NCBI RefSeq assembly: GCF_000284115.1
Contig: NC_017080.1
Location: 2,250,001 to 2,282,000 of the forward strand
Direction: 5' to 3'
From: Phycisphaera mikurensis NBRC 102666
Lineage (GTDB): Bacteria > Planctomycetota > Phycisphaerae > Phycisphaerales > Phycisphaeraceae
Length of the DNA: 32,000 bases
The position numbers were made by a program, and so were the translations under genes. Shown one piece after another: positions 1 through 28,055 of this stretch (position 1 is its first letter; each line of letters starts with the position of its first letter). The notes under the pieces are model-generated. The model was not told the origin of the DNA and did no database searches. It saw nothing but the letters and a program-made list of their open reading frames with translations.

Positions 1-1889
1 GCTACGTCTTCGAGGCCGTCGACGGCGACGCCCGGGCGTTCCTCGGCGCCGGCGGCGTGGCGGGCGGGCTCGACGCGGCGGAGCCGTTCGCCACCGAGCT
101 GACGCCGGGCTTCCAGACGCCCGAGTGGGCGAAGGACGCCGTCTGGTACCAGGTCTTCGTCGAGCGCTTCCGCAACGGCAACCCCGCCAACGACCCCGGC
201 GCCTACCCCTACGAGAACCTGCTGCCGTGGACCAGCGACTGGTGGGAGACGCACACCGCCTTCGGCGAGGCGGCCGGCGAGGAGAACTTCTACGAGGGCG
301 CCGGCAACGTGTGGGCCCGCCGCTACGGCGGCGACATCCAGGGCCTGCAGGAGGCGCTGCCGTACCTGAAGGAGCTCGGCATCACCGCCCTGTACCTCAA
401 CCCGATCTTCGAGGCCGACTCGATGCACAAGTACGACACGGCGGACTTCCGCCACGTCGACGACAACTTCGGGATCCTCGCAGAGAAGCGCTTCGAGCAG
501 GTGGCCGGCGAGACCGACGACCCGGCGACGTGGAAGATCACGCCGTCGGATCGGGTGTTCCTCGACTTCCTGGAGGTCGCCCACGCCCAGGGCTTCAAGG
601 TCGTCATCGACGGCGTGTTCAACCACACCGGCACCGCGCACCCCTTCTTCCAGGACGTGCTCATGCACGGCCCCGAGTCGGAGTACGCCGACTGGTTCGA
701 GGTCACCGACTGGGGCGACCCCGCGAACTGGGGCAAGCCGGAGATGGCCGGCGAGCCCGGCGGCATCCAGTACAACGCCTGGGACGGGCCCAGCGGCGCG
801 CTGCCGGTGTTCAAGAACGACCCGCAGACCGGCTTGGCGCCGGGGCCGCGCGAGCACATCTTCGCGATCACGAAGCGGTGGCTGGATCCCGACGGCGACG
901 GCGACCCCAGCGACGGCGTAGACGGCTGGCGGCTCGACGTGCCCGGCGACATCGCCCACCCCTTCTGGATCGACTGGCGGAAGGTCGTGAAGGATGTCAA
1001 CCCCGACGCCTACATCGTCGGCGAGATCTGGCCCTGGGCCCACCCCTGGCTCCAGGGCGATCAATTCGACGCGGTCATGAACTACCAGTTCGCGATGCCC
1101 GCGACCGACTTCTTCGCCGACGTGGAGAACCCGATGCCGCCGAGCGTCTTCGCCGAGCGGATGCTCCGCGTGGCGTACGGCTACCCCATGCAGGTCGCGC
1201 TCGCGCAGCAGAACCTCTACGGCAGCCACGACACCGACCGCTTGGCGTCGATGTTCGTGAACACGGACCGTCCCTACGACGGGATGAACCGGATCCAGGA
1301 CTCGGACCCGAGCTACGACAAGCGGAAGCCCGACGCCGAGGAGTGGGCGCGGATGCGGCAGGCGGTCGTCTTCCAGCACGCCTTCCTCGGGGCGCCGATG
1401 ACCTACTACGGCGACGAGGCCGGGATGTGGGGCCCGGACGACCCGAGCAACCGGGCGCCGATGGTGTGGCCGGACGCGGGCACCTTCGAGCAGGAAGGCG
1501 TGGGCTTCGACCCGGAGATGTACGCCTTCTTCCGCCGCGTCATCGCGATCCGCCAGCACCTGCCGGCGCTGCAGCGGGGCGCCTTCAACGTGGTGCTCGC
1601 CGACGACGACGCCGGCGTGTTCGCCTTCGAGCGGGTGCTCGGAGACGAGCGGGTCGTGGTGGTCCACAACCGCAGCGGGCGGGCCCGCGACGTGGAGGTG
1701 CCGGTGGACGCCGAGCGGGTGCTCGACCTGCTGGACCCGGCGACGGCTTCGGTGCCCGCGCCGGATCTCGCGGACCCGCAGCGGCCGGAGCTGGAGGTCC
1801 GCGGCGACGGCCCGGTGCTGCGGGCGAGCGGCGGCGAAGCCACCGTGCGGCTGCCCGCCTGGGGCAGCGCGATCCTCGTCGCTCCATGA
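1..1889 (+). CDS. GH13 alpha-amylase-family glycoside hydrolase (neopullulanase/cyclomaltodextrinase-like), 5'-truncated by the window edge
   Basis: The frame is open from position 3 (YVFEAVDGDARAF...), so the GTG at 57 in the track is probably internal. GH13 catalytic motifs are visible: GGDIQGLQEALPYLKELGITALYLNPIFEADSMHKYD, GFKVVIDGVFNHTG, DGWRLDVPGDI, YIVGEIW, YGSHDTDR. Confidence 0.9.
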   Translation, partial: YVFEAVDGDARAFLGAGGVAGGLDAAEPFATELTPGFQTPEWAKDAVWYQVFVERFRNGNPANDPGAYPYENLLPWTSDWWETHTAFGEAAGEENFYEGAGNVWARRYGGDIQGLQEALPYLKELGITALYLNPIFEADSMHKYDTADFRHVDDNFGILAEKRFEQVAGETDDPATWKITPSDRVFLDFLEVAHAQGFKVVIDGVFNHTGTAHPFFQDVLMHGPESEYADWFEVTDWGDPANWGKPEMAGEPGGIQYNAWDGPSGALPVFKNDPQTGLAPGPREHIFAITKRWLDPDGDGDPSDGVDGWRLDVPGDIAHPFWIDWRKVVKDVNPDAYIVGEIWPWAHPWLQGDQFDAVMNYQFAMPATDFFADVENPMPPSVFAERMLRVAYGYPMQVALAQQNLYGSHDTDRLASMFVNTDRPYDGMNRIQDSDPSYDKRKPDAEEWARMRQAVVFQHAFLGAPMTYYGDEAGMWGPDDPSNRAPMVWPDAGTFEQEGVGFDPEMYAFFRRVIAIRQHLPALQRGAFNVVLADDDAGVFAFERVLGDERVVVVHNRSGRARDVEVPVDAERVLDLLDPATASVPAPDLADPQRPELEVRGDGPVLRASGGEATVRLPAWGSAILVAP

Positions 1890-1938
1890 TGCCGGCCGCC
1901 CGCCTGGGCTTGGTTCCCCCTCCTCCTCCGGACTCCCG

Positions 1939-2949
1939 ATGCGAATGCTCCCTCTGCTCATCCTCGCCGCCGCCGCCGCGACGCTCCCCGCTTGCGCGAC
2001 GACCCGACCCGAAGCGGCGCCGCCGGCGTCCGCCCCGCCGCGGGCGTTCGCCGACGCCGTGGGGCTCGACAACGGCCGGGTGCGGCTGGAGGTCTCCCCC
2101 GCGGTCGGCCGCGTGGTGCACTTCGGGCCGGTGGGCGGGCGGAACCTGCTGTGGGTGGCCCCAGCGGGTGCGGCGACGACGCCGGGCGCCGACGGGCAGG
2201 CTTACGACAACGTCGGCGGCGACAAGCTCTGGCCGACCTCGCAGGCGCTGTGGGAGGCGGCGACGGGGAACCGGATCTGGCCGCCGGACGGCGTGCTCGA
2301 CGGCGCGCCCTGGGAGCTGGTCGTGGCCGACGCCGACCGCGTCGTGATCCGCAGCCCCGAGAGCGACGACTACAAGCTGGTGGTGACGCGGGAGTTCCGC
2401 CTGGAGGGTGCGGGTGCGCGGATCCGCAACACGCTGCTGCGGACCGCGGCGAACCCGTTCCCCGTGTCGGCCTGGACGGTGACCCAGGTGCCGATGCCAA
2501 GGACCGCCCTCCTGGACGCGGCGGGCGATCGCCCCGCTGGCACGCCGGCGTCGCGGCCCCTCACGCCGGAGACGCCGGACCGCATCGCGGGTCGGCTGGG
2601 CGTGGCGGGCGCGGCCGGGGCCGACGCCGGCGCCGTCGCGTGGGAGCAGGCGGGCCCGCTGCACGCGAAGCTCGGCAGCTTCGGCCGCTGGGTGGCCGCG
2701 GTCTACGACGACCTGACCTTCCTGCAGCGCACGGCGTACGACCCCGCCGGCGGCTACCTCGACGCGTCCAGCGTGCAGGTCTACCGCGGCGAGCCCTACC
2801 TGGAGCTGGAGCTCTGGAGCCCGCTGGCACAGCTCGCGCCCGGCGAGGAGCTGAGCAACGAGGTGGTCTGGGAGCTGATCGAGGCGCCGGCGGAGCGAGC
2901 CACGGCGGAGCTCCTGCGGCGGGACGCGGAAGCGGAAGCAGGCCGCTGA
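1939..2949 (+). CDS. Hypothetical lipoprotein of unknown function, possibly a mutarotase-like/DUF4380-like fold (assigned from memory only)
   Basis: ATG start. N-terminus MRMLPLLILAAAAATLPAC has a signal peptide plus a lipobox Cys. Amino-acid composition looks protein-like, unlike the overlapping Arg/Pro shadow frames. Lies 50 nt downstream of the GH13 gene on the same strand. Confidence 0.6.
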   Translation: MRMLPLLILAAAAATLPACATTRPEAAPPASAPPRAFADAVGLDNGRVRLEVSPAVGRVVHFGPVGGRNLLWVAPAGAATTPGADGQAYDNVGGDKLWPTSQALWEAATGNRIWPPDGVLDGAPWELVVADADRVVIRSPESDDYKLVVTREFRLEGAGARIRNTLLRTAANPFPVSAWTVTQVPMPRTALLDAAGDRPAGTPASRPLTPETPDRIAGRLGVAGAAGADAGAVAWEQAGPLHAKLGSFGRWVAAVYDDLTFLQRTAYDPAGGYLDASSVQVYRGEPYLELELWSPLAQLAPGEELSNEVVWELIEAPAERATAELLRRDAEAEAGR

Positions 2950-2987: not shown

Positions 2988-3683
2988 TCAGGCGCCGGCG
3001 ACGAAGCGTTCGGGCAGCTCGGACAGCGTCTCCCGCATCGCCGCCTCGCCGCCGAACTGGAAGCCGAGCTGGGTCGTGTAGGCGGCGCAGGCGTCGAGCT
3101 TCGCCGCGAGCGCGGCGGGCCGCGCCGGCACGGCCTCGCCGCGGGTGCGTTCGGCCACGCCGCAGCGCAGCACGTACGGGGTGTCGAGCCAGTGGAGGCG
3201 GCGCCCCGGCGGGACGGCCGATCGGGCCGCGGCGATGACGTGCAGGTGATCGGCGTGGTTGCCCAGGCCGTGCGGAAGGTACACGCGGTCGGCCCCGCAG
3301 AATCCGCGGATCGCGGCCGAAACGGCGGCCTCGGTGCCGCGGTCCGCGGGCCGCACGCCGGCGAAGAGCTCCGCAGCGCTCCCGTAGCCGCGGTGAGGCG
3401 CCTCGGGCAGGTCGAGGTGGTGGACGCGGTCGCGGGCGAGGCCGAGGCGGGCGGCGGCGGCGAGGTCTTCCCTCCGGCGGAGGGCGAGGTAGTCGGCGTC
3501 CGCCGGCAGGCCCTTGTCCAGCTGGCAGGCGAGGGCGAACCCGGCCGGGTCCGGAACGCTGCGCGTGAAGACGGTGACCAGGTCGACGCGCCAGCCGTCG
3601 GCGACGAGCTGCGCGAGGGTGGAGCCCGCGGAGAAGGCCGCGTCGTCGAGGTGGGGCGAGAGGAAGACGGCGGAGCGGGTCAC
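2988..3683 (-). CDS. PIG-L/LmbE-family N-acetylglucosaminyl deacetylase
   Basis: N-terminal VFLSPHLDDAAFSAG matches the PIG-L SPHxDD metal-binding motif, and a later HADHLHV matches the HxDH motif. About 230 aa. The GTG start overlaps the upstream GT4 stop as GTGA (3680-3683). Confidence 0.85.
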   Translation of the reverse strand: MTRSAVFLSPHLDDAAFSAGSTLAQLVADGWRVDLVTVFTRSVPDPAGFALACQLDKGLPADADYLALRRREDLAAAARLGLARDRVHHLDLPEAPHRGYGSAAELFAGVRPADRGTEAAVSAAIRGFCGADRVYLPHGLGNHADHLHVIAAARSAVPPGRRLHWLDTPYVLRCGVAERTRGEAVPARPAALAAKLDACAAYTTQLGFQFGGEAAMRETLSELPERFVAGA

Positions 3684-4900
3684 AGCAGGTGAGGCTTCGC
3701 CCGGTAGACGCAGGGCTCCGGCTCGCCTTCGAGTTCATCGAAGGCGTCGCGGGGCGGCGACGCGAGGACCGCCTCGTACACCCGCTCGATCGCGCCGGCG
3801 ATCACGGGCCAGGCGAAGTTCTCGCGGACGCGCCCGAGCGCGGCCGCGGCGAGCCGCTCGCGGAGCGGGGCGTCGTCAAGCAGGCGCCCGATCGCGGCGG
3901 CCAGCGCGGGGACGTCCGACACGGGCACCAGGAGGGAGTCGCGGCCGTCCTTCAGGCAGTCGACCACGCCGGTGGTCTCGCAGCTGACGATCGGCAGGCC
4001 GGTGGCCATCGCCTCGAGGATGGTGTTGCTGAAGCCCTCGGCGTGCGTGGGGCTGACGAAGAGGTCGGCCTCGCGGTAGACGGCCGGGGCTTGGGCGTAC
4101 GCGGCCGCGCCGGTGGCGGTGGCCCCGGGCGTGCCGGCGCACCGCGCGGCGACCTCCTCCTGGTCGGGGCCGATCCCGCTGACGCGGAGGACCACGTTGC
4201 GGCCGTCTGCGCGCAGCCGGTCGAAGGCGTCCAGCAGCTCGATCACGCCCTTCCGGCGGTCGACGCGGCCGTGGTAGAGCAGGCGGACCGGCGAGGACGC
4301 CGCGCCGGGCGCCCGTCCCGGCCGCGGGTGGAACCGGTCGGTGTCGACGGCGCCCGGCACGACGGTGAAGCCGGAGCGCGGCACGTCGAGCCGATCCGCG
4401 ACCGTTCGGGCGAAGCCGTCGCTGCCGATGATGACGGCGTCGCTCTGCGTGCAGACGCGCCGCATCGCGACGCGGTGCGTCGCGCAGCACTCCCCCACCC
4501 AGTGGCCATCGCCGCCCTGGATGCTGACGACCGCGGGCAGGCCCAGCTTGCGGGCGACGCGGAGGGCGGCGAAGCCGGTGGGGTAGCCGTACTGCGCGTG
4601 GACGAGGTCGAAGGGCCGCTGGGCGTGGCGACGCTCGACCTCGGCGGTCATCACCGCCATGTCGGCCTCGAAGTCGCCCCGCTCCTGCTCGTGCGTGCTC
4701 TCGAAGCCGACGACCTCGGCGCCCGGGATCGCGGGGGGCTCGCCGCCGCCGTAGACGCCGGCGCTCGCGCCGCCGTAGTACTGGCTGAGCATGGTGACTC
4801 CGTGGCCGCGCGCGACCAGCTGGCGGACCATGTTGTCGGCGTACACCGCCATGCCGCTGACCGTGGGGAAGTAGCGGCGGGAGAGGAAGCAGATCCTCAT
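3680..4900 (-). CDS. GT4-family glycosyltransferase (MshA/BshA/PIG-A-like retaining GT-B)
   Basis: N-terminus MRICFLSRRYFPTVSGMAVYADNMVRQLVARGH. C-terminal EX7E region EGFSNTILEAMATGLPIV followed by GVVDCLKDGRDSLLVP. I prefer the ATG at 4900, which has GGGAG 8 nt upstream; the track ORF extends to a GTG at 4921. Confidence 0.85.
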   Translation of the reverse strand: MRICFLSRRYFPTVSGMAVYADNMVRQLVARGHGVTMLSQYYGGASAGVYGGGEPPAIPGAEVVGFESTHEQERGDFEADMAVMTAEVERRHAQRPFDLVHAQYGYPTGFAALRVARKLGLPAVVSIQGGDGHWVGECCATHRVAMRRVCTQSDAVIIGSDGFARTVADRLDVPRSGFTVVPGAVDTDRFHPRPGRAPGAASSPVRLLYHGRVDRRKGVIELLDAFDRLRADGRNVVLRVSGIGPDQEEVAARCAGTPGATATGAAAYAQAPAVYREADLFVSPTHAEGFSNTILEAMATGLPIVSCETTGVVDCLKDGRDSLLVPVSDVPALAAAIGRLLDDAPLRERLAAAALGRVRENFAWPVIAGAIERVYEAVLASPPRDAFDELEGEPEPCVYRAKPHLL

Positions 4901-4970
4901 CGCGCACGCTCCCGGAACCACCGGGGCGACGAGCCGACGCGGGGCCGCGGAGCGGGTGGCGCGAGGCGGC

Positions 4971-6443
4971 TCATGAAGGCTCCTCCGCGAGGGCGATGGC
5001 GTGCACCTCCGGCTCGCGGTAGAGCGCGTACAGCGGCTCCATCCGCTCGTCGAGCTTGGGCGTTGCCAGCCACGCGTCGCGGCCGTCGGGCAGCGGCACG
5101 GGCCGGGCGCCGGCGGGCGGCCGGCCGTAGCCGGCCAGGTCGCTGCCGCGGCCGACGAGCCGGTCGAGGTTGCGGGCGCCGATGCGGTGGTACGTCACCG
5201 TCTCGACCTCCATCTCCGGCACGATCGCCTTGCACGCGGCGAGGCCGGTCGGACCGTCGGGCAGGCAGTCCAGGTGGAAGACGTCCAGGCCTTCCGCGGC
5301 GTACCGCGCCAGCACCTCGTCGAGCAGCTTCTCGGGCGTGTCGACCCGTGCGGGCTCGACGGTCGGCAGCTCGCTGAAGCGGACCGTCGCCTCCACGCGG
5401 AAGATCGTCGGTTCCAGCAGCGCCATCGTCTCCTCGGCGGTGAGGTTCACGAGGTCGCGCACGCCCTCGAAGCTGCGGGACTCTTCGACCGTCGCGGGGT
5501 TCGCCCGGAACGCGGCGAGGTAGCCGTCGGGGAAGAGGTGCTCCATCCGGTCGAGCGGACCGTGGCTGAAGAACTTCCGCACCCGGCTGGCACAAAACTC
5601 CAGCAGCGCCTTCTGCAGCGCGGCCTCGCGATCGGGGTGCGCCGCCTCGCCACAGCCCGAGAGCATCACCGGGTGCGGGCACGCCGCGGGGTCCCGCTCG
5701 TGCCCCACCACGTACAGGTTGGTCATGCCCAGGTTCGTGTCGGCGAGCTTGACGATGACCTCGATGCCGAGTTTGTCGAGCGTCGTCAGCAGATTGCGGC
5801 TGATCGGATCCTCCACGCGGTCGAGATCCACGCGGATGCCGCGGTCCAGGGCGCGGTAGCCGGCGGAGTTGCCGTCGCGCTGCACGAGCTCGAGGAGCCC
5901 GTGGCCGAGCGCCCGCTCGTAGGTGTCCCCGGCGCCGTTGCCGTTGCTGACCGGCTGGTACAGCGGCCGCTCGCCCTCGGCGAGCCGGAGGTCGTAGGTG
6001 TGGGTGACGGCGGCTTCCACCGGGATCCAGGCCTCGGGCTGGTCGGCCCAAGCGACGCCGTCGACGTGCCGGCGGACCTTCACCCACGTCAGCTCGCGGT
6101 GCTCGTCCCACGCGGTGCCGGCGGGCAGCCGCAGGCGGCGGGGATCCACGGCGTCGAGGCCTTCGGCCCGCAGGCCGTGCAGGCTCGCGACGCGCCGCTG
6201 CAGCGCAGCCCCGGCGCGGTGCGCCGCGGTCTGCTCCAGGAGCTCGGCCCACGTGCCCACCAGCGCCCGCGTGTCGCTGGGCCCGTAGCCGATGCCGTTG
6301 ATCATCTCGCCGTCCTCCTGCCACTGCGTGACGCTCCAGACGGGCACACCGGTGACGTCGAGCGGCGTGATCGCGAACTCGAAGCTCCTCGCTTCGGGCG
6401 CGAGGCGGCGGAGGCGGTCGAGGGTGGTCTGGAGGTCAGGCAT
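4971..6443 (-). CDS. YcaO-domain protein (ATP-dependent amide-activating superfamily), stand-alone
   Basis: Four regions align to the E. coli YcaO sequence as I remember it. NGIGYGPSDTRALVGTWAELLEQ matches NGKGATKKAALASALGEYFERL. VSNGNGAGDTYERALGHGLLELVQRDG matches VSNGMSAGNTRNEARVQGLSEVFERY. GEAAHPDREAALQKALLEF matches GAHPDFGVALERTVTELL. ACKAIVPEME matches CRIIVPGMS. The ATG at 6443 overlaps the upstream MBL stop by 8 nt. Confidence 0.88.
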   Translation of the reverse strand: MPDLQTTLDRLRRLAPEARSFEFAITPLDVTGVPVWSVTQWQEDGEMINGIGYGPSDTRALVGTWAELLEQTAAHRAGAALQRRVASLHGLRAEGLDAVDPRRLRLPAGTAWDEHRELTWVKVRRHVDGVAWADQPEAWIPVEAAVTHTYDLRLAEGERPLYQPVSNGNGAGDTYERALGHGLLELVQRDGNSAGYRALDRGIRVDLDRVEDPISRNLLTTLDKLGIEVIVKLADTNLGMTNLYVVGHERDPAACPHPVMLSGCGEAAHPDREAALQKALLEFCASRVRKFFSHGPLDRMEHLFPDGYLAAFRANPATVEESRSFEGVRDLVNLTAEETMALLEPTIFRVEATVRFSELPTVEPARVDTPEKLLDEVLARYAAEGLDVFHLDCLPDGPTGLAACKAIVPEMEVETVTYHRIGARNLDRLVGRGSDLAGYGRPPAGARPVPLPDGRDAWLATPKLDERMEPLYALYREPEVHAIALAEEPS

Positions 6444-7281
6444 TCGGTGCGGGTTCGGGGATCGGGAAGGGGTCGGCGGAGGGATCGCCCGCCAGCTGGG
6501 CGTCGAGCAGGGCCATCGCCGCGGCTTTGCCGCCGGAGGTCACGACCTCCCAGGGCGTGATGACGGCGTCGAAGTCCAGGGAGGCGAAGAGGTCGCGGTA
6601 GCGGCGGGCGTCGCCGTGGGTGATCGGGATGTGCGCGTCATAGGCCTTGTGCGTCGAGATCGTCTCGGCCACGCCCACCGTCTGCCCCTGCTCGGGGAAG
6701 GTGAACTTGAGCGCGTCGCCGCAGTACAGGCGGCCGTTGACGGCGTCGTGGAGGACGGTGTGGTCGGGGGTGTGGCCGGCGGTCCGGTGGAGGGCGAAGC
6801 CGGGCGCCAGCTCCCACGCCTCGTCGAAGGGGAGGGTCACCGAGAACGCCTGGCACCACGGCAACGCCTCCGCCTGGAAGACGGCCCGCGGCTCGAAGCG
6901 GTCGGCCACCCGCCAGAGGCCGCCGTACACGTGCGCGTGGCTCGCGGCGAGGAACGCGACGCCTCCGCGCGCCTGGAGGTGGTCCAGCGCCGCCTCGTCG
7001 TACCAGCCGCAGCCGTCGAAGTGCGCGTTGCCTCCGGGCGTCTCGATGAGGTAGCCGCTGCTACCGATTCCGATCGACGGGGTCGTGGTGAAGCGGGTGA
7101 CGCCGGGCAGCGGCTCGTCCCAGGACACGGCCTGCCGCGCGTCAACCTGCGCCGGCGTGGCGAAGGCGTAGCCGCCGGGCGGCAGCGGGTGCCGGTAGTC
7201 CTCGCAGACCGGGCAGGCGACCGGCTCGGCGGGACGCTTCTGCCAGAAGCCGCAGTTCTCGCAGACGTAGGGGCTCAGCAC
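6436..7281 (-). CDS. MBL-fold metallo-hydrolase-like protein with an N-terminal CxxC...CxxC zinc ribbon
   Basis: N-terminus VCENCGFWQKRPAEPVACPVCEDY contains two CxxC pairs. MBL-like elements are AASHAHVYGG (a degenerate HxHxDH), GHTPDHTVLHD and YCGDAL. GTG start at 7281. Confidence 0.7.
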   Translation of the reverse strand: MLSPYVCENCGFWQKRPAEPVACPVCEDYRHPLPPGGYAFATPAQVDARQAVSWDEPLPGVTRFTTTPSIGIGSSGYLIETPGGNAHFDGCGWYDEAALDHLQARGGVAFLAASHAHVYGGLWRVADRFEPRAVFQAEALPWCQAFSVTLPFDEAWELAPGFALHRTAGHTPDHTVLHDAVNGRLYCGDALKFTFPEQGQTVGVAETISTHKAYDAHIPITHGDARRYRDLFASLDFDAVITPWEVVTSGGKAAAMALLDAQLAGDPSADPFPIPEPAPNA

Positions 7282-7301
7282 GCGGGGTCCTTTGCGGCGA
7301 C

Positions 7302-7385
7302 GGCGTGCCCGGTGGCCTCGGGTCCGCCCGACGCACCCCGGCCCGCCGCGCGTGTCCGCGTCGGGCGTGCCCGGTGCCGCCTCGG
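7302..7385 (-). repeat. Direct repeat GGCGTGCCCGGTG...GCCTCGG (two copies, 62 nt apart) flanking a 9-bp inverted repeat, in the only large gap inside the operon
   Basis: Copies at 7302-7321 and 7364-7385; the first 13 nt are identical. The inverted repeat pairs CGCCCGACG (7325-7333) with CGTCGGGCG (7359-7367). Confidence 0.5.
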
Positions 7386-7407
7386 CGTCGTTGCAGCGGG
7401 AGCGGGT

Positions 7408-8469
7408 TCACCGGGCACGGGCTCCCTCCCCGGCGCAGCGGTCCAGCAGCCGCATCGTGTGCAGGTCTTCGTCCGGGTCGAAGCCGGCGAAGCTCCCGCG
7501 GAGGCAGGCGTCGGCGAAGGCCTCGACGAGGTTCAAGAAGGGGCTGCGGCCCTCCGGCGGGAAGCGGTGCGTCTTCGCGGATCCGTCTGCCGCCCGCGTG
7601 ATCGTCAGCGTTCCGCCGGGGTCCTGGCCCATCGTGTTCTCGCAGCGGGCCATGGCTTCGGTGCCGTACACCTCCAGCGTGCGGCGTGGGAAGGTTTCGG
7701 GGCGGTTGTAGGCGACGGTGTGGCTGAGCAGCACGCCCGAGGCGGTGCGGGCGGAGATCGCCGCGCCGTCGTCCACGGGCGTGTCGGTGTGGACGCGCCG
7801 CTGGAGGAAGCAGGAGACGTCCTCGATCCGCTCGCCGACCAGCCGCTGGAACAGGTCCAGCCCGTGCGGGGCGAGGTCGATCATGGCCCCGCCGCCGGCA
7901 CGCCGGGGATCGACCCGCCAGTTGTCGTGCGCTTCGGCGTTGGGCGGGGCCCAGTCGCGGCCGGTCCAGCAGGCGTAGTGGATGCGGACGCAGGTGAGGG
8001 TGCCGAGCTCGCCGGCGTCGATCCGCCGCTTCAGCTCCAGGTGGGCGGGGTGATGCCGCTGGTCGAAGGCGGTGGCGATGGGCACACCCGAGCGTCTCGT
8101 CTCGGCCACCATGCGCTGCGCCTCCTCGGCGTTGCGGGCGGTCGGCTTCTCGCAGAGCACCGGCTTCCCGGCGTGGCAGGCGGCGATGGACGCGGCGGCG
8201 TGCAGGTGGTTCGGCGTGCAGACGTAGACGGCGCCCACGGCGGGGTCGGCGAGCAGGGCCTCCAGCGAGCCGTGCGTGCGGTCGGCGCCGAGCGCTTCGG
8301 CCGCGGGCCGACGCGGATCGAAGGCCGCGGCGAGGTGGCCGTTGCGGCTGGCGCGGACCGCGGGCGCGGCGTAGTCCGTGGCCAGCCAGCCGCAGCCGAC
8401 CACGCCCCAGCCGACGCGGGCGCCGATCAAACCGAGTCCCCCGTGCCGCAGCCGCCCCAGTCGCTCCAC
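7408..8469 (-). CDS. Gfo/Idh/MocA-family NAD(P)-dependent oxidoreductase (inositol/sugar dehydrogenase-like)
   Basis: Rossmann N-terminus [20 protein letters not shown], then [30 protein letters not shown] (the family EKP motif). The track start is the GTG at 8469. A TTG at 8430 would give a TTGA overlap with the upstream stop and a more typical N-terminal length. Confidence 0.85.
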
Positions 8470-9374
8470 AGGCCGGCCGCCTCGAGCACGCGCCGCTGCA
8501 GCGCCTGCTCCGGCGCCTCGTGCACGATGTTCATGCCCACCACCGCGTCCGCGAGGACGAAGCCGGCGGACTCGGCGTGCCAGGCCATCTCCAGCGTGCG
8601 GTCGATCACGTCGGCCGCGTGGAAGCAGCGGGCCTCGGGGGTGTCGGTGCGCCTCGTGTGCCGGAGCGCCGCCCGCACGGCCGAGGCGAGCGGCGCGTCC
8701 AGCTGCTCGTAGGCCTTCTCGAAGGCCGCCGACGTCACCCGCTCGGCGAGGCCATGGGCGGCGAGCAGGCGGTCACCGGCGAAACCCACGTCGGGCAGGC
8801 TGGCATTGAAGAGGTGGTGGGCGAGGCCGATCGTGCAGACCACGCCGGCGTCGGCGCCGAAGGCCTCGCTCATCAGCACGGCGTAGGCGGCCGTCATCCC
8901 ACAGTGGTCGCCGTGGCTCTCGGCCGGCTCCAGGTAGAGCCGGGGCATCGACGGGTGCGTGGCACCGGCGCGGGGCTGGTCCATCAGCACGTCCACGAAG
9001 CCGGGCGGCCGCGCGCCGCACGCGTGGGCGCCCGCCGCGTCGGCCAGCGCGTCGGCGGAGGGCAAGAATCCGCGGACCGCGGCCGAAAACACGGCTCCGG
9101 CCTCGCGGTCCGCGGCGCCGTGGGCAGAGAGCAGCTCCGGCGTGAGCCCGGCGAGCGCGACCTGCGCGACCAGCCGGCCGGCGAGAGCCGAGGCCACCCC
9201 CGCCGGCGTCGCACCGGAGGCGAGCCGGCCCCACGCGTCGGCGAAGGCCCGATCGACCAGCGACCGCCGCCCACCGCCCGCCGTGCGGACCCGCTTAAGG
9301 CCGTTCATCCGCCGCAGCAGCGGCGCGAGGCGCGCGAGCGCCTCCGCCTCGTCGTTCGAAAGCCCCACGTTCAC
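8427..9374 (-). CDS. HD-superfamily-like protein (YfbR/HD_3-like, divergent); function unknown
   Basis: Only the last ~315 codons of track ORF 8427..9890 look protein-like. The GTG at 9374 overlaps the upstream stop as [21 protein letters not shown] resembles the ENVSEHSLQVA region of Yfb[15 protein letters not shown] resembles YHDASEVLTGDLP, and [12 protein letters not shown] resembles KQADALCAYLK. The assignment is from memory and tentative. Confidence 0.5.
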
Positions 9375-10561
9375 CGCGTGGCCGCCGCTTCCACCCCGAC
9401 CCGCTCCTGCAGCTCGCGGATGCTCGCGAGCATGGCCTCGTCGTCGATCTCGTGCACGTCCACCGGATCGCCCGGCTCGCGGATCAGCGTGATCGTGAGG
9501 CGGCCGCCGAGGTGCTGGCGGAACTCCTCCAGCCCGTCCATGAGCTCCTCGGTGCGGGCGAGCGCGGGGTGCGAGGCGAGCAGCCGGAGGTCGTCGAGGC
9601 AGCCGAGGATCCGCTCGCAGTCCCGGGGCGGGAGTCCGAGGACGCGGCGGCTGTAGAGGCAGTCGATCGCGAGGCCGATCGCCACGGCGTCGCCGTGGCT
9701 CAGCGAGAAGTCGGTCATCGCCTCGAGCTTGTGCGCCGACCAGTGGCCGAAGTCCAGCGGGCGCGCCTCCAGCGCCTCGAAGGGGTCGCCGCCCTCGGTG
9801 ATGTGGCGGAGGTGCCACAGGGCGCTCTCCTTGATGACCGGCAGGGCCGCCCGCATGTCGCGCTGGGCGATCCGCTTCGCGTCCCGGCACAGGCGCCCGA
9901 AGGCGTCGGCGTCCTTGAGGAGGAAGACCTTCACCGCCTCGGAGAAGCCGGCCCGGAAGGCCCCGTCGGGCAACGACTCCAGCAGCTTGGCATCATTGAT
10001 CACCGCCCACGGCACGGCGAAGGTGCCCTTCCAGTTCTTCTTGGAGAAGAGGTTCACCGCGTTCTTGACGCCGATGCCGCTGTCGTCCTGCGCGAGGGTG
10101 GTGGTGGGCATCCGCACGAGGCGGACGCCGCGGTGCGCCACGGCGGCGGCGTAGCCGACCGCGTCGAGCACCGCTCCGCCGCCGATGACCAGCACGTAGT
10201 TGCGGCGGTCGACGTCGAGCTTGTTGAGCCGCGAGAGCAGGTTCTCCACCACCGCGGGGTCGTTCTTGACGCCCTCGCCGCCGTCGACGCGGACGATGCC
10301 GCCGACCTGCTCGAGGCGGTCGGGGTGCCGGTCGAACAGGTCGGTCACGCGGTCCACCAGGTCGGGCTCGCCATCGGCCACGCCGCCGTCGATGACCGGC
10401 ATCACGCGGACGCGTCCTTCGGCGGGTTCGAAGACGCCCAGCAGGGCTTGTTCGTCGTCGCCCAGCGCGTCGGCGGTGAAGCGGAGCCGGTGACGGAACG
10501 GGACGGAGAAGTCCACGTCGAAGCGGGCGGACGCGTTGGCGGGGTCGAGATCCTGAGGCAT
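9371..10561 (-). CDS. 3-dehydroquinate-synthase-superfamily sugar-phosphate cyclase (EEVS/DDGS/DOIS-like or AroB-like)
   Basis: ATG at 10561 (MPQDLD...); the upstream part of the track ORF is shadow sequence. Motifs: [95 protein letters not shown]. These correspond to the nucleotide-binding, substrate and metal sites of DHQS-fold enzymes. Confidence 0.85.
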
Positions 10562-16891: not shown

Positions 16892-18145
16892 TCAGGCCGG
16901 TCGGGCGCGGGTCGCCCACGCCGCCCAGCCGCAGACGATCCAAGCGGTCAGGCAGTCGCTCGCGTAGGCGAGCTTGAAGCCGTCGCGGGTGCAGGCGGCG
17001 AGGGTGACCAGCCAGGCGGCGGCGAAGAGGCCGGCGGTCCACGGCTTCATCCCGGTGCCGCGGCGGGCGGCCAGGGCGACGGCGATGAACAGCGGGAGCG
17101 CCCAGGCCATGTCGAAGCCGCTGCGCCACAGCGGCAGCACGGTGCGGCCGAGCGCCAGAGCGGTGGCGTCGGTGTAGAGATTCCAGTTCTGCAGGAGCGA
17201 GAGGGCGAAGCAAGCGGCGGCGACCCAGGACCAGCGGCCCGCCGCCGCGTCGTCCCCGCACGCGGCGCGGAGGCAGAGGGCGCCGGCGATGAGGTACATC
17301 GCCATCGGCAGGCTGGAGGCGAAGTCGCCGCGGGCGGCGAGCTGCAGCTCCTTGAAGGGGATGGAGAGCATCCACGCGGCAAGCGCCGGCGCAGCGCAGG
17401 CCGCGGCGAGCAGCGCCAGCAGCGCGACGCCCCGCGCGGGGAGGACCAGGGCGTGGCGTCCGGCGGGGTCGCCGGCCGGAGTCCCCGCGCGCGAGCGGCG
17501 ACGCAGCCGCACGGCCGCGAGGAGCAGGAGGAAGAAGCCGACCAGCTCGGTGCCCTCCTCGACGAGCATCCGCAGGGGCAGCAGCGCGGGCGGCCACGCG
17601 ACCGCGTGCTCGAGGTGCTCCTGCACGAAGACGGTGCCGAAGAGCGCGTAGGCGGCGAGGACCAGGGCCCAGGCGTTGCCGAGAGCGCGTCGCCGGAGGA
17701 ACAGCACGGCGACGGCCGCGAGCGCGGGCACGGCGAGGACGGCCGCGAACCGCTCGAGCGAGAGCCCCAGCGACGCCGGGACGAGGAGGTCGAAGCGCTC
17801 GTGCAGGGACCCGGCCTCGTCGACGCACAGGCTGAAGGCGACGCCGGCCGTCACCGCCGCGGCGGCGGCGGCGAGGGGCTCGGCCCTCCGCAGGGCGGCG
17901 GCGGCGGAGCCCATGAGCAGGCCGGCCCACAGCAGCGAGCAGGCCGAGAACCAGGCCGCGATGTTGGATTCGCGGCCGAGGTCGAGCGGGCCGAGCGCGA
18001 GGCCCAACGCCTCGGGCCAGGTGCGGACGAGGTACGTGAGCCCGGCGAGGGCCGCGGCGGCGATGGCCCAGCCGAGCAGCCACCGCCGGGCGGCGGCCTC
18101 GGCTCGGGTGCGGGGGGCGGGTGCGGGGGTGGGGGCGCTGCTCAT
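16892..18145 (-). CDS. Polytopic integral membrane protein of unknown function
   Basis: ATG at 18145 (MSSAPTPAP...). About 417 aa with many hydrophobic segments (LLGWAIAAAALAGL, AAWFSACSLLWAGLLMG, WALVLAAYALFGTVFV, LVGFFLLLLAAV and others). I recognise no family. Confidence 0.6.
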   Translation of the reverse strand: MSSAPTPAPAPRTRAEAAARRWLLGWAIAAAALAGLTYLVRTWPEALGLALGPLDLGRESNIAAWFSACSLLWAGLLMGSAAAALRRAEPLAAAAAAVTAGVAFSLCVDEAGSLHERFDLLVPASLGLSLERFAAVLAVPALAAVAVLFLRRRALGNAWALVLAAYALFGTVFVQEHLEHAVAWPPALLPLRMLVEEGTELVGFFLLLLAAVRLRRRSRAGTPAGDPAGRHALVLPARGVALLALLAAACAAPALAAWMLSIPFKELQLAARGDFASSLPMAMYLIAGALCLRAACGDDAAAGRWSWVAAACFALSLLQNWNLYTDATALALGRTVLPLWRSGFDMAWALPLFIAVALAARRGTGMKPWTAGLFAAAWLVTLAACTRDGFKLAYASDCLTAWIVCGWAAWATRARPA

Positions 18146-18260
18146 CGTCGCTGAGGATCGGGCGGCCTCGGCCCCCGCCTGCACACGGGCCGCCGCGCGG
18201 CGCACGAGATTGTCAACAACCGGGTTGCCGATCCCGCCCGGCGGCGTCATCCTCCCCGCC

Positions 18261-20711
18261 ATGCCGCGCACCACCGAGACCCTCTCCGACTGGGCCTTCG
18301 CCCCCACCGACGACGCCGCCGCGGTGGAGCCGGGTTTCGACGCGGCGTCCTTCGCGCCGGTTCGGGTGCCGCACGACTGGTCGGTGGAGCACGGCTTCGA
18401 CGAGCGTCTCGAGGGCTGCACGGGCTACCTGCCCGGCGGCTTCGGCACCTACCGCCGAGCGTTTCCGACGCCGGAGGTGCCGGCGGGCGGCCGCGTGCGG
18501 CTGACCTTCGACGGCGTCTACAACCGCAGCGAGGTCTGGCTGAACGGGCGGCGGATCCACCAACACCCCTACGGCTACAGCCCCTTCACGCTGGATCTCA
18601 CCGACCAGCTGGCACCCGCGGACCAAGAGAATCTGATCGCCGTGCGGGTGGACCGAACGCGCTACGCGGACAGCCGCTGGTACACGGGCTCGGGGATCTA
18701 CCGCGCGGTGACGCTGGAGGTGGTGGAGGCGCTGCACGTGGCGCACGATGGGGTCTTCGTCACCACGCCGGAGGTCTCCGACGGCCACGCCTCGGCGACC
18801 GTCCGCACCGAGGTCGTCCACGCCGGGGCGGGGGAGGTCGGCTTCGTGCTGCACCAGCGGGTGCTCGGGCCGGACGGGGCGGAGGCGGCGAGCACGCGGG
18901 CGGGCTTCAACTCGGCCGACGCGGGCGTGCGGGCGGTGGAGCAGACGCTGGAGATCGCGGACCCGCAGCGCTGGTCGCCGGACGCGCCGACGCTCTACAC
19001 GCTCCAGACGCGGGTCGAGCGGGCGGGCGAGGTCGTCGACGAGGTGGAGACGCGGATCGGCTTCCGCACGCTGGAGCACGACGCGGCGCGGGGGTTCTTC
19101 CTCAACGGGCGGCCGACGCCGATCCGCGGCGTGTGCCTGCACCACGACGGCGGGTGCGTCGGGGCGGCGGTGCCCGACGCGGTCTGGGAGCGGCGGCTGC
19201 GCACGCTCAAGGACGGCGGCTGCAACGCCATCCGCACCGCCCACAACCCGCCTTCCGCGGCCTTCCTCGACCTGTGCGACCGCATCGGCTTCCTCGTCCA
19301 GGACGAGTTCTTCGACGAGTGGGAGTTCCCCAAGGACAAGCGGAAGAACTGCCGCGAGCAGTCGGTCGACGCGATCACCCGCGGCTACTGCGAGCACTTC
19401 CCGACCCACGCCGAGGCCGACCTGAAGGCGGTGATGCGGCGCGACCGCAACCACCCCTGCGTGTTCCAGTGGAGCATCGGCAACGAGATCGAGTGGACCT
19501 ACCCGGCCTACGTGGAGGCGACGGGCTTCTTCAACATGGACTGGCAGGGCAACTACTTCTGGAGCCTGCCCCCCAACGACCGGGCGACGATCCGGGCCAC
19601 GATCGAGGCGGCGGGCCCGGACCCCTGCGGCGAGACGGCGCAGCGGCTGGCCGGCTGGACGCGCGAGCTGGACACGACGCGGCCGGTCTTCGCGAACTGC
19701 ATCCTGCCCTCGGCGAGCCTGGAGACGGCCTACGGGGACGCGCTCGACGTGATGGGGTTCAGCTACCGCCGGGTGATGTACGACTACGCGGGCAGGCACC
19801 ACCCCGAGAAAGCGGTGATGGGCGGAGAAAACCTCGGCCACGCGCACGAGTGGCAGGCCGTGCAGGAGCGGGACCGCGTCGCGGGGCTCTTCCTGTGGAC
19901 CGGCATCGACTACATGGGCGAGAGCGACGGCCAGTGGCCGCGGAAGAGCACCGACAGCGGCCTGCTCGACGCCGCCGGCTTCGTCAAGCCCGCGTGGCAC
20001 CTGATGCGCACCCTGTGGCGGCCGGAGGTCCCGCACACGCACATCACCACGCAGACGCTGGACGACTCGCTCTACCGGGTGGACGCCGACGGCCGCGTGC
20101 TCGAACGGGAGCCGGGGCAGTGGGAGCGGCGGCTGTGGGGCTGGCACGGCGTGGAGGAGCACTGGAACTGGCGGAAGGGCGAGATCGTGATCGTCGAGGT
20201 GGCGAGCACGGCGGGCGAGCTCGACCTCGTGCTCAACGGCCGCAGCCTCGGCGCACGCCGGCGCGAAGACTTCCCCGATCGGCTCTTCAAGTGGGCGGTG
20301 CCCTGGGAGGCCGGCGAGCTGCGGGCGGTGGGCGGCGGGGCGGACGTGGGGATCCGCACCGCCGGCCCCCCCGCCACGCTGAAGCTCAGCCGCGGGCCGT
20401 CGGCGATGGCGGTGGCGGTGCGGTCACCCGACGCCCACCATGTGGAGGCCCGGCTGCACGACGCCGACGGCCGCCGCGTGCGGCACGCGGAGGCGGAGCT
20501 GACCTTCCGGCCCGACGGGCCGGGGAAGGTGCTGGGCGTGGACAACGGCTCGCCGCGGAGCGTGCAGCCGTACGCGAGCGACCGGCTGACGACCTCGCAG
20601 GGGCGGGCGCTGGCCATCGTCGGGGAGGCCGGCGGAGGCCGGCCGCTGCGGGTGACGGTGACCGGGCCGGGGCTGGCGGCGGCGACGCTGGAGCTCGACG
20701 CCGGCGCCTGA
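18261..20711 (+). CDS. GH2-family glycoside hydrolase (beta-galactosidase/beta-glucuronidase-like)
   Basis: ATG at 18261. Sugar-binding domain VRVPHDWSVEHGF...FDGVYNRSEVWLNGRRIHQHPYGYSPFTLDLT and RWYTGSGIYR. TIM barrel CNAIRTAHNPPSAAFLDLCDRIGFLVQDE and HPCVFQWSIGNEIEW. No signal peptide is evident. Confidence 0.85.
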   Translation: MPRTTETLSDWAFAPTDDAAAVEPGFDAASFAPVRVPHDWSVEHGFDERLEGCTGYLPGGFGTYRRAFPTPEVPAGGRVRLTFDGVYNRSEVWLNGRRIHQHPYGYSPFTLDLTDQLAPADQENLIAVRVDRTRYADSRWYTGSGIYRAVTLEVVEALHVAHDGVFVTTPEVSDGHASATVRTEVVHAGAGEVGFVLHQRVLGPDGAEAASTRAGFNSADAGVRAVEQTLEIADPQRWSPDAPTLYTLQTRVERAGEVVDEVETRIGFRTLEHDAARGFFLNGRPTPIRGVCLHHDGGCVGAAVPDAVWERRLRTLKDGGCNAIRTAHNPPSAAFLDLCDRIGFLVQDEFFDEWEFPKDKRKNCREQSVDAITRGYCEHFPTHAEADLKAVMRRDRNHPCVFQWSIGNEIEWTYPAYVEATGFFNMDWQGNYFWSLPPNDRATIRATIEAAGPDPCGETAQRLAGWTRELDTTRPVFANCILPSASLETAYGDALDVMGFSYRRVMYDYAGRHHPEKAVMGGENLGHAHEWQAVQERDRVAGLFLWTGIDYMGESDGQWPRKSTDSGLLDAAGFVKPAWHLMRTLWRPEVPHTHITTQTLDDSLYRVDADGRVLEREPGQWERRLWGWHGVEEHWNWRKGEIVIVEVASTAGELDLVLNGRSLGARRREDFPDRLFKWAVPWEAGELRAVGGGADVGIRTAGPPATLKLSRGPSAMAVAVRSPDAHHVEARLHDADGRRVRHAEAELTFRPDGPGKVLGVDNGSPRSVQPYASDRLTTSQGRALAIVGEAGGGRPLRVTVTGPGLAAATLELDAGA

Positions 20712-26387: not shown

Positions 26388-27095
26388 ATGCGTCCGCTTC
26401 CTCTGCTATCCGCTGCGCTTTCCGCGCTTGTTGCCGCCCTTCCCGCCGCGGCAGCGACGGTCGTTTTCGAAGACGATTTCGATGACGAAAACGCTCCTTC
26501 ACACCGCTTCGTTCGCAACTACACCGGCTTCGCCAACTTCGAGGTCACCCGCGGCGGGGTCGACCTCATCGGCAACGGCCGGCTCGATCACCTCCCCGGC
26601 AACGGCCTCTACGTCGAGCTCGACGGCAAGAAGGGGACCGGCGGGGGCACGCTCCGCTTCAACGCCGACCTCGACGGCCTCGCGGGTCCGCTCGAGGTCT
26701 CCTTCGACCTCGCGGGCAGCCAGCGGCAGAGCGGCGGGGTCGTCGTGTCTCTTCAGGGCGAGAGGACGCGGTACAACTTCAACCGCGACGACGACTTCAG
26801 GACCTTCACCCTCCGCACCGAGTCGGCGGAGGACTTCGAGCTGCTCTTCATCCAGGGTGGCTCCGACGGCATCGGCATCCTGCTGGACAACGTCGTGATC
26901 ACGAGCCTCGCGGAGGCGGGGGACGGGGGGGCCGGGGGGGACGGGGGGCACGGCGGAGGCGATGCGGACGAAGGCAACGGCGGAGCCGACACCGGCACCG
27001 CTCGCCCGGCGGTGGCCGTGCCCGTGCCGGGCGCCGCCGCGGCGGGGATCCTGCTGCTCGGCGGCCTCGCCGCCCGCCGCCGCCAACGAGACTGA
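26388..27095 (+). CDS. PEP-CTERM-anchored secreted protein
   Basis: ATG at 26388 with AGGAG 7 nt upstream. Signal peptide MRPLPLLSAALSALVAALPAAAA. C-terminal sorting signal VPVPGAAAAGILLLGGLAARRRQRD (a PEP-like motif, a TM helix and an Arg cluster), preceded by a Gly/Asp-rich spacer. Confidence 0.78.
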   Translation: MRPLPLLSAALSALVAALPAAAATVVFEDDFDDENAPSHRFVRNYTGFANFEVTRGGVDLIGNGRLDHLPGNGLYVELDGKKGTGGGTLRFNADLDGLAGPLEVSFDLAGSQRQSGGVVVSLQGERTRYNFNRDDDFRTFTLRTESAEDFELLFIQGGSDGIGILLDNVVITSLAEAGDGGAGGDGGHGGGDADEGNGGADTGTARPAVAVPVPGAAAAGILLLGGLAARRRQRD

Positions 27096-27118
27096 CGACG
27101 CTTCCGGGGAGTCCGATC

Positions 27119-27149
27119 GCGCCCGCGGTGTCAAGCCCGCGGGTGCTTT
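27119..27149 (+). terminator. Hairpin plus short T-tract downstream of the PEP-CTERM gene
   Basis: GCGCCCGCGG (27119-27128) pairs with CCGCGGGTGC (27137-27146), including one G-U pair, around an 8-nt loop. TTT follows at 27147-27149. Confidence 0.45.
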
Positions 27150-27286
27150 CGCGCGCTGCGCAGCCCGCGGGGCTTCTCCGCGACTCGGACATCCCGCAGC
27201 CCGGCGGTCCGCGGGACGCCGCGGAGCGGACCCCGGGGGCGTGGTTTGCTTCCCGATCGGGCGCTGGCGCGGGCGGCCGCGGCGTG

Positions 27287-27298
27287 GCGCTACCGTCG
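27287..27298 (+). promoter_or_regulatory. GCGCTACCGTCG element (TACCGT -10-like) 5 nt upstream of the SRAP GTG start
   Basis: TACCGT lies at 27291-27296 and the GTG at 27302. The same 12-mer occurs on the minus strand at 10593-10604. Confidence 0.35.
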
Positions 27299-27301
27299 GG
27301 C

Positions 27302-28015
27302 GTGTGCGGACGCGTCCAGATCAAGATGACCTCGCGCGAGGCGGCCGAAGCCTTCGGCGCCGACGCCCGCTGCGACGCCGCGGTGTTCGAACGCTGGAAC
27401 GCGGCGCCTTCGCAGCGGCTCCCGCTGCTGCAGCCCGCCGCTTCGGGGGGCCTGGAGCTCGCGGCCGCGGATTGGGGCTTCTCCAAGCCCGGCGGTGGCG
27501 GTCCCCGGCCAATCAACGCCCGCAGCGAAACCGCACCCCGCAGCGGCTTCTTCTCGGCGGCGTGGCGGCGGGGGCGGGCCGCCCTGCCGGTCACGGGCTT
27601 CTTCGAGTGGCAGGCGCCCCAGGCGGACGCGGCTCCGCCGCTGTTCGGTGGCGACGCCTCCGCCGCGCGAAAAACGCCCTGGCTGATCGAGCGAGCGGAC
27701 GGCCGGCCCTTCGCGCTCGCGGCGCTGCGCAACGAGGCGGGCTTCTGCGTGCTGACGACCGCGCCCAACGCCGCGGTGGCCCGGATCCACGACCGGATGC
27801 CGGTGGTGCTCGACCGGGCCGCGCTGGAACGCTGGCTCGACCCCCGGGCCGAACCCGACGCGCTGCGTCCTCTGATGAGGCCGTGCCCGGCCGAGGATCT
27901 CCGCTTCACCCGGGTCGCGGACGCGGTCAATGCGCCCGCCAACGAGGGGCCGGCCGCCGCCGAACCCCGGGCGGAGCCGGTCGCGGGGGCTACCTTCGCC
28001 GCCCCCGCGGCCTGA
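27302..28015 (+). CDS. yedK: SOS-response-associated peptidase (SRAP/YedK, abasic-site processing protein)
   Basis: A GTG at 27302 gives the N-terminus M-CGRV, placing the family's catalytic Cys at position 2. Other motifs: NARSETA, PVTGFFEW, RPFALAAL, TTAPNAAVARIHDRMPVVL. Confidence 0.82.
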   Translation: MCGRVQIKMTSREAAEAFGADARCDAAVFERWNAAPSQRLPLLQPAASGGLELAAADWGFSKPGGGGPRPINARSETAPRSGFFSAAWRRGRAALPVTGFFEWQAPQADAAPPLFGGDASAARKTPWLIERADGRPFALAALRNEAGFCVLTTAPNAAVARIHDRMPVVLDRAALERWLDPRAEPDALRPLMRPCPAEDLRFTRVADAVNAPANEGPAAAEPRAEPVAGATFAAPAA

Positions 28016-28055
28016 ACGGCCGCACCGCACGCCGCCCCCCTGACCCGACCCGCCC

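Follow-up and report, generated by a model that had tools for sequence, protein, structure and literature searches.

An operon of Phycisphaera mikurensis with a YcaO enzyme among cyclitol and amino-sugar genes probably makes an unknown small molecule

What does a bacterium make with an operon in which a YcaO enzyme stands among genes for cyclitols and amino sugars? The question is raised by a 32,000-nucleotide (nt) stretch of the Phycisphaera mikurensis NBRC 102666 genome (NC_017080.1, positions 2,250,001 to 2,282,000; hereafter the window), which has a G+C content of about 74%. By third-position GC (GC3) frame analysis and open reading frame (ORF) listing, seven co-directional minus-strand genes, G1 to G7, lie within positions 2988–10561. 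We found that this operon is a reduced planctomycete variant of a cluster that recurs in about ten phyla; its product is probably a small molecule not yet known, formed by new chemistry. The reading that we favour from sequence comparison, with a probability of about 0.5, is that the seven genes form a single operon for the synthesis of a soluble modified cyclitol, usually with glucosamine (GlcN) attached. The genes, with the predicted identities of their products, are as follows.

G1, 9371..10561, minus strand: EboD-type sugar-phosphate cyclase with the 3-dehydroquinate synthase (DHQS) fold, 396 amino acids (aa)
G2, 8427..9374, minus strand: atypical HD-superfamily protein, 315 aa
G3, 7408..8430, minus strand: Gfo/Idh/MocA NAD(P) oxidoreductase, 340 aa, with a TTG start
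G3–G4 spacer, 7282..7407, minus strand: 126 nt
G4, 6436..7281, minus strand: metallo-beta-lactamase (MBL) fold with an N-terminal CxxC...CPxC zinc ribbon, 281 aa, partner of the YcaO
G5, 4971..6443, minus strand: YcaO-domain ATP-dependent enzyme, 490 aa
G6, 3680..4921, minus strand: retaining glycosyltransferase of family GT4, 413 aa (406 aa from the ATG at 4900)
G7, 2988..3683, minus strand: PIG-L/LmbE-family zinc deacetylase, 231 aa

A conserved operon and its variants

A preliminary description of this DNA had proposed seven minus-strand genes that overlap at four of six junctions, and direct reading of the sequence found the coordinates exactly as claimed: GTGA overlaps at G1/G2 (9371–9374) and G6/G7 (3680–3683), a TTGA overlap at G2/G3 (8427–8430) and an 8-nt overlap, ATGCCTGA, at G4/G5 (6436–6443). 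Between G5 and G6 is a gap of about 49–70 nt, depending on the start of G6, for which the ATG at 4900 ('MRICFLS') is likelier than position 4921. The description had weighed two starts for G3, TTG at 8430 and GTG at 8469; because G3 orthologues have just 4–10 residues ahead of their GWGxVGCGW Rossmann motif, the TTG is favoured. Pfam also agreed with its domain calls for all seven proteins, those of G2 (HD_3) and G4 (Lactamase_B) being below cut-off and backed by profile comparisons, AlphaFold2 (AF2) models and Foldseek.

A YcaO-motif scan of one genome per GTDB species confirmed 245 relatives, of which we took the best 80 loci with 10-kb flanks. Gene order was read from tblastn with the window proteins and from all-against-all ORF clustering (81 loci), and variants were counted in the 62 loci with complete flanks. 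The recurring order was cyclitol synthase, G2, (S-adenosylmethionine (SAM) methyltransferase), G3, G4, G5, (AP_endonuc_2 TIM barrel), G6 and G7, with optional genes in brackets; the conserved same-strand families that emerged from clustering were the nine of that order and no others. The HD-like, Gfo and MBL genes were kept beside the YcaO gene in 59–60 of the full loci. Such an arrangement is far beyond chance, since the same order is found in about ten phyla. It was conserved across Planctomycetota, Bacteroidota, Rhodothermota, Gemmatimonadota, Actinomycetota, Acidobacteriota, Myxococcota, Verrucomicrobiota and Alphaproteobacteria, and the relatives covered also included Chloroflexota.

The commonest form, seen in 47 of the 62 loci, contained a gene resembling myo-inositol phosphate synthase (MIPS), the TIM barrel, GT4 and PIG-L. 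A MIPS-like gene headed the cluster in 53 loci and G1 in six, all of them in Planctomycetota and none with a TIM barrel. Pfam finds the MIPS domains in the MIPS-like protein, which is nevertheless distant from actinobacterial INO1; the likeness of the TIM barrel to IolE and IolO is weak. The SAM-dependent methyltransferase, of about 385 aa, lies between G2 and G3 in 43 of the 81 clustered loci (for example L037, 6993–8141; L027, 6813–7976; and the planctomycete L032 and L040) and is found neither in the P. mikurensis operon nor in the 32-kb window. The synteny of orthologues, together with MBL–YcaO fusions described below, upholds the earlier proposal that the genes are one functional unit; the particular set of seven turns out to be the planctomycete form, the commonest form having the MIPS-like and TIM-barrel genes and often the methyltransferase. 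A literature search found no paper on this combination of genes, in agreement with the description's suspicion that it had not been reported.

Three of the full loci were atypical: L022 and L034, with the YcaO gene alone, and L029. In L029 (3630–11527), from a metagenome-assembled genome (MAG) of Chthoniobacterales, there are two YcaO paralogues, one fused to an MBL domain (848 aa) and one free, with GT4 and PIG-L between them; Gfo and MBL genes are present, and MIPS, G1 and G2 are not nearby. The YcaO proteins of L022, L033 and L034 belong to the same clade (42–47% identity) and have none of the partner genes. That of L022 adjoins an AstE/AspA-like deacylase gene, in a record labelled as a Halobacteriales archaeon that may be mis-binned.

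The cyclase and the sugar enzymes

G1 matches the Pfam families DHQ_synthase and DHQS_C (108 and 80 bits), and its RefSeq name is 3-dehydroquinate synthase. It could accordingly be the housekeeping enzyme of that name lying beside an unrelated six-gene operon, a view also favoured by homologues about 60% identical that stand alone in other Planctomycetes. Its scores argue otherwise: 183.4 bits with the canonical aroB model TIGR01357, under the cut-off of 305, and 461.5 bits with the EboD-type NCBIfam model PRK06203, for which the cut-off is 333. G1 is 45.8% identical, over 92% of its length, to a '3-dehydroquinate synthase' gene on a plasmid of Azospirillum B510, and that gene lies in an ebo operon, with EboA/TatD/NPP on one side and EboE/UbiA on the other. 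In a neighbour-joining tree, the planctomycete G1 copies are sister to this Azospirillum gene and a Gloeothece homologue, far from an aroB-like sequence. The GTGA overlap with G2 and the replacement of MIPS by G1 at the cluster head in two planctomycete classes are further points against a housekeeping role, which has very little probability and is largely excluded. By sequence, then, G1 is an EboD-type cyclase and not AroB. The preliminary label of a cyclitol-type cyclase stood in that respect, and the type is EboD rather than DOIS or EEVS.

Outside Planctomycetota, the position of G1 is filled by a gene of the inositol-phosphate-synthase family, which points to a cyclitol as the starting point. 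The product of EboD is reported to be a deoxy-inosose. Neither the operon nor the rest of the 32-kb window contains eboA, B, C, E or F. In the ebo clusters of Actinomycetota, eboD is absent and ino1 (MIPS) occurs instead with two genes for putative isomerases or dehydratases (ino2 and ino3), and planctomycete ebo genes are scattered (thallusin preprint, 10.64898/2026.05.21.724671). Both of these features match what we observed, namely the alternation of G1 with MIPS and the stand-alone G1 homologues.

G3 matches Pfam GFO_IDH_MocA. Among solved structures it is closest to 1,5-anhydro-D-fructose reductase (E 7e-33) and further reductases or dehydrogenases of cyclic ketoses, with inositol dehydrogenases more distant, and its score against NCBIfam iolG (111 bits) is below cut-off. 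The weak likeness of the Gfo and TIM-barrel proteins to IolG and IolE would suit a catabolic or salvage operon for a compound containing inositol or N-acetylglucosamine (GlcNAc). Such an operon would not be expected to have a cyclitol synthase (G1 or MIPS-like) at its head together with a glycosyltransferase, and the cluster has no conserved transporter, kinase, aldolase or IolB/C/D/J homologue. We find a degradative function scarcely credible and, like the housekeeping role of G1, largely excluded.

G6 falls into the GT4 families of Pfam, and its nearest solved structure is MshA (7qsg, E 9e-18), then PimA and BshA. G7 scores 55.9 bits with Pfam PIG-L (cut-off 28.2), and its translation contains the zinc motifs HxDD and HxxH, as PHLDD and HADH; its nearest solved structures are the teicoplanin pseudoaglycone GlcNAc deacetylases, and the MshB model has no match in it. 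The closeness of G6 to MshA and the zinc motifs of G7 bear out the earlier comparison of this pair to a module for GlcNAc transfer and deacetylation. As had also been noted, no MshC- or MshD-type ligase or acetyltransferase and no aminotransferase is encoded in the operon or anywhere in the 32-kb window.

The two enzymes might instead act as PIG-A and PIG-L do, building a membrane glycolipid head group on a GlcN-inositol phospholipid like those of glycosylphosphatidylinositol anchors or phosphatidylinositol mannosides. PIG-A/PIG-L and PimA are members of these families, PimA ranks second among the solved structures matched by G6, and a MIPS-like gene heads most clusters. We disfavour this product, and consider it improbable, because the membrane enzymes are lacking: the conserved neighbours include no CDP-alcohol phosphatidyltransferase, acyltransferase or flippase, nor any further membrane protein, and none of the seven operon proteins has a clear transmembrane segment. 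The planctomycete variant, moreover, would begin at a phosphate-free deoxy-inosose, which is unusable for phosphatidylinositol synthesis.

The YcaO, its MBL-fold partner and the HD-like protein

G5 matches Pfam YcaO with 162.9 bits and is 100% identical to a database protein of P. mikurensis. An alignment of 13 orthologues revealed invariant E67, E70, E185, Q188 and R189, which we take to be the ATP/Mg site of YcaO structures. The nearest solved structure is MJ1094, which NCBIfam methan_mark_1 assigns to the McrA-thioamidation family, followed by LynD. The clade is compact and clearly set apart, with 102 representatives (at 50% identity) at E<=1e-30 and 823 at E<=1e-3 among 1.84 billion proteins. 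A search for a precursor peptide found no conserved small ORF (25–110 aa, outside called genes) in 81 loci and the window, the only candidates being antisense shadow ORFs, and the intergenic space of the operon, at most 126 nt, leaves no room for one. No E1-like/Ocin-ThiF or TfuA partner was present among the operon proteins or the scanned representatives of conserved neighbour families. We therefore rejected a system for peptides that are made by the ribosome and then modified post-translationally, which would have an adjacent peptide and an E1-like or TfuA partner.

The Pfam match of G4 to Lactamase_B is weak (16.7 bits, below the cut-off of 22.7). Its AF2 model has a predicted local distance difference test (pLDDT) score of 92.7, and the best Foldseek match of this model is 2p97 (Ava_3068, an uncharacterised Anabaena protein; E 7e-10, probability 1.0), with B1 lactamases among the further matches, also at probability 1.0. 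As modelled, G4 has a true MBL fold. The HxHxDH motif is cut to HxH in this family, within S-H-A-H-V-Y/F-G (SHAHVYG in G4), and the second-site D and H are missing; H115, H117, H170, H174, D189, H211 and D215 are invariant. In Salinibacter ruber and several other lineages, the G4 domain is fused N-terminally to the YcaO in one polypeptide, which is strong evidence that the two work together. We know of no other YcaO system with a dedicated MBL-fold partner.

One alternative is that the YcaO and the MBL-fold protein have as their target a protein or a ribosomal peptide whose gene lies elsewhere, perhaps even a pathway enzyme, and modify it, for example by backbone thioamidation or amidine formation, and that the cyclitol and sugar genes serve a separate product or a glycan on the peptide. 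To our knowledge, all characterised YcaO substrates are peptides or proteins, and the nearest solved relative of G5, MJ1094, is of the thioamidation family. The target of E. coli YcaO, recently reported to be uL16, is encoded by a gene that is not described as next to ycaO. Three loci contain this YcaO clade without any partner gene, and a conserved 55-aa tail of G2 in Rhodothermales (see below) is a potential peptide substrate. On the other side stand the absence of a conserved small ORF near the loci and of an E1-like, Ocin-ThiF or TfuA partner, the position of the YcaO gene, fixed between the MBL and sugar genes across about ten phyla, and the confinement of the tail to one lineage. We regard this alternative as unlikely. 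Given that neither a peptide nor a known partner is present, the YcaO and MBL-fold pair would be read most economically as activating a small-molecule carbonyl with ATP.

For G2, the Pfam HD_3 match is below cut-off (18.3 bits); that of a Micromonospora orthologue is above it (28.3 bits). The G2 profile matches PH0347 (2cqz, E 2e-4) and HDDC2, and the AF2 model (pLDDT 93) has 2cqz and 4l7w as top Foldseek matches (probability 1.0, TM(target) score 0.65). The C-terminal half has a YfbR/HDDC2-type HD fold, and the N-terminal half, of roughly 130 aa, consists of helices and matched no solved structure. In place of HD, the dyad is an invariant HH (H186 and H187), and the canonical H...HD...D ligands are not found. 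The family, recovered in 65 of the 81 clustered loci, has the invariant residues E152, H154, H157, H186, H187, N190, D195, H252, D255, D258 and H285 and a QPRAGxTxP motif. An HD oxygenase of the MIOX/PhnZ kind was considered for G2; the Foldseek match to PhnZ is weak (probability about 0.2), and the nearest relatives are phosphohydrolases.

Two segments of G2, 'LKRVRTAG' (residues 26–33) and 'QPRAGAT' (133–139), both resemble the HDDC2 motif 'LKRVPRTGW', which suggests a degenerate duplication of the HD fold in the helical N-terminal half. In addition, G2 orthologues of the Rhodothermales type end in a conserved tail of about 55 aa, 'SGSYERGGHGAVPA..PLAGGPG.EDGR.L.DGT..AHLERRELGS'. The tail was found at L016 (7733–7894), L017 (7700–7840), L019, L021 and L024 (P0295, P0306, P0308, P0341 and P0344), several of which are from MAGs labelled only Bacteroidetes, and the window and all other lineages lack a counterpart of it. 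Its possible roles include those of a tethered peptide substrate and of a docking element.

The proposed pathway and its relatives

For the favoured reading, a soluble modified cyclitol, we infer the substrates, the order of steps and the chemistry of the YcaO, MBL-fold and G2 proteins as follows. G1 would cyclise a hexose 6-phosphate to 2-deoxy-inosose, and G3 would adjust the oxidation state of the ring. G6 would transfer GlcNAc from UDP-GlcNAc to the cyclitol, and G7 would take off the acetyl group. G5, with its dedicated partner G4, would use ATP to activate the carbonyl oxygen of a non-peptide substrate, the C=O in question being that of the acetamido group or that of the inosose, and attack by ammonia, an amine or sulfide would put nitrogen or sulfur in place of that oxygen. 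As a metalloprotein of the HDDC2/YfbR-like kind in which HH replaces HD, G2 may be a phosphohydrolase that acts on a phosphorylated intermediate. In one consistent scheme for planctomycetes, oxidation of deoxy-inosose by the Gfo protein would yield a trihydroxycyclohexane-1,2-dione; elsewhere, an inositol would pass through the IolG-like Gfo protein and the IolE-like TIM barrel, a putative dehydratase, to a product of the same constitution. The exchange of an EboD-type cyclase for the MIPS-like and TIM-barrel genes suggests that the routes converge on a cyclitol of the deoxy-inosose or dione type.

If this is correct, G5 would be the first YcaO to act on a non-peptide small molecule: with the MBL-fold partner, it would spend ATP to exchange the carbonyl oxygen of an inosose or GlcNAc-cyclitol for nitrogen or sulfur, giving a new amino-, amidino- or thio-cyclitol glycoside without a pyridoxal phosphate (PLP) aminotransferase. 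We put this more specific proposal slightly below even odds. Carbonyl activation has precedents on peptides in thioamidation and in ItfB, a recently reported YcaO that forms peptide amidines with NH4Cl. A low-molecular-weight thiol, a compatible solute and a sunscreen are candidate roles for the product.

Several observations weigh against the proposed cyclitol pathway. The characterised substrates of YcaO enzymes, now including uL16, are peptides or proteins, as described above. Glycosylation is not universal in the cluster: PIG-L is not adjacent in three of the six G1-type planctomycete loci, and six Actinomycetospora loci (L050, L051, L057, L058, L059 and L063) have no TIM, GT4 or PIG-L gene and retain the MIPS-like, G2, methyltransferase, Gfo, MBL and YcaO genes. 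The core may thus exclude the GlcN part, which would then be an add-on; in Actinomycetospora, either the product is the aglycone or the cluster borrows the housekeeping MshA and MshB. The donor and acceptor of G6 are likewise in doubt, with 71 bits against MshA TIGR03449 (cut-off 462.5) and 81 bits against the BshA model (cut-off 273.7), and the Salinibacter G7 orthologue reaches 19.8 bits with the BshB1 model (cut-off 182.5). The cluster-linked G1 copies follow the species tree, and an eboD orthologue about 60% identical to G1 stands alone in other Planctomycetes; G1 is thus probably the eboD orthologue of the lineage, now heading this operon, and ebo genes at other sites of the genome may share it. 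Finally, G2 is kept in the G1-type variant although a cyclitol phosphate is not expected there. As a separate observation, an IclR regulator gene follows the YcaO gene in L050, the one annotated locus of the six.

Comparison with known systems places the cluster among cyclitol–aminosugar pathways of the mycothiol or paromamine kind, with a possibly unprecedented YcaO function. Like the early steps of mycothiol synthesis (Ino1, MshA, MshA2 and MshB) and bacillithiol synthesis (BshA/BshB), it combines GT4 and PIG-L, in most phyla with a cyclitol-phosphate synthase; MshA is the nearest solved relative of G6, and there are no membrane components. The P. mikurensis operon differs in that G6 and G7 are far below the MshA, BshA and BshB cut-offs, an MshC-type Cys ligase and MshD are absent, four conserved genes (HD-like, Gfo, MBL and YcaO) are added, and an EboD-type cyclase replaces MIPS. 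The 2-deoxystreptamine core pathway (BtrC, BtrM/BtrD and NeoM/NeoL) also takes a DHQS-fold cyclase to deoxy-inosose and uses a glycosyltransferase and a PIG-L-type deacetylase to reach a GlcN pseudodisaccharide. It belongs to the specialised metabolism of actinomycetes and Bacillus, whereas the present cluster is pan-phylum, and the operon lacks its PLP aminotransferase, radical-SAM enzyme and second dehydrogenase set and has an EboD-type cyclase rather than DOIS.

With the ebo (eboA–F)/thallusin system, the operon shares an EboD-family cyclase and the exchange of EboD for inositol-phosphate synthase with an isomerase or dehydratase; it has no eboA, eboB (TatD), eboC (UbiA), eboE or eboF, and the partner enzymes are entirely different. 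The TfuA-independent YcaOs of thioamide or amidine formation (MJ1094/Mcr marker 1, E. coli YcaO–uL16 and ItfB) are likewise stand-alone enzymes without an E1-like partner; G5 is nearest to MJ1094 by sequence and conserves the putative ATP-site glutamates. The present cluster differs from these in having no substrate gene, in its sometimes fused MBL partner and in its setting among carbohydrate genes. The mycosporine-like amino acid pathway (DDGS, an O-methyltransferase and an ATP-grasp enzyme) offers a lead only: the DHQS-fold cyclase is shared, as is the methyltransferase, optional here, and an ATP-dependent exchange of a ring C=O for nitrogen is possible in both. The operon has no ATP-grasp or non-ribosomal-peptide-synthetase-like ligase, and its cyclase would be a C6 EboD enzyme, not the C7 DDGS.

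Were the proposed pathway correct, YcaO chemistry, much studied yet known from peptide and protein backbones only, would reach small molecules, and the cluster would stand for a new compound in bacteria from soil, saline and glacier habitats that span about ten phyla. It predicts an unknown metabolite common to Planctomycetota, Bacteroidota, Rhodothermota, Gemmatimonadota, Actinomycetota, Acidobacteriota, Myxococcota and others, including many lineages without a defined low-molecular-weight thiol; the source genomes come in part from saline, desert-crust and glacier samples. The recently characterised EboD cyclase gains a second metabolic context, and this second, independent displacement between EboD and inositol-phosphate synthase helps to define the shared intermediate. 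Cultivable carriers include P. mikurensis, Salinibacter ruber, Hymenobacter, Micromonospora and Streptomyces.

Within the operon, the G3–G4 spacer (7282–7407) is the sole sizeable gap, and other planctomycete loci are gapless here. It contains the 13-mer CACCGGGCACGCC twice on the minus strand (7302–7314 and 7364–7376) and is a possible protein-binding site or internal promoter. A regulatory RNA was rejected, as the predicted fold of the spacer is at the level of shuffled sequence (z = 0.23). A defence system, suggested by a Pfam 'GT4-conflict' match, was also rejected, as PADLOC gave nothing for any of the seven proteins. The flanks are unrelated to the operon: downstream are a convergent gene for a signal-peptide DUF4380 protein and an alpha-amylase gene, and upstream is a divergent modA/B-like ABC transporter. 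Other genes of the window (57–2949 and 10647–32000) encode DUF547, UvrB, a GH2 glycosidase, a protein with four S1 domains, DUF1611, GAPDH, CinA and a zinc alcohol dehydrogenase. High-GC3 ORFs without a Pfam match include 16892–18421 on the minus strand, which overlaps the GH2 ORF, and 26962–28155 on the plus strand.

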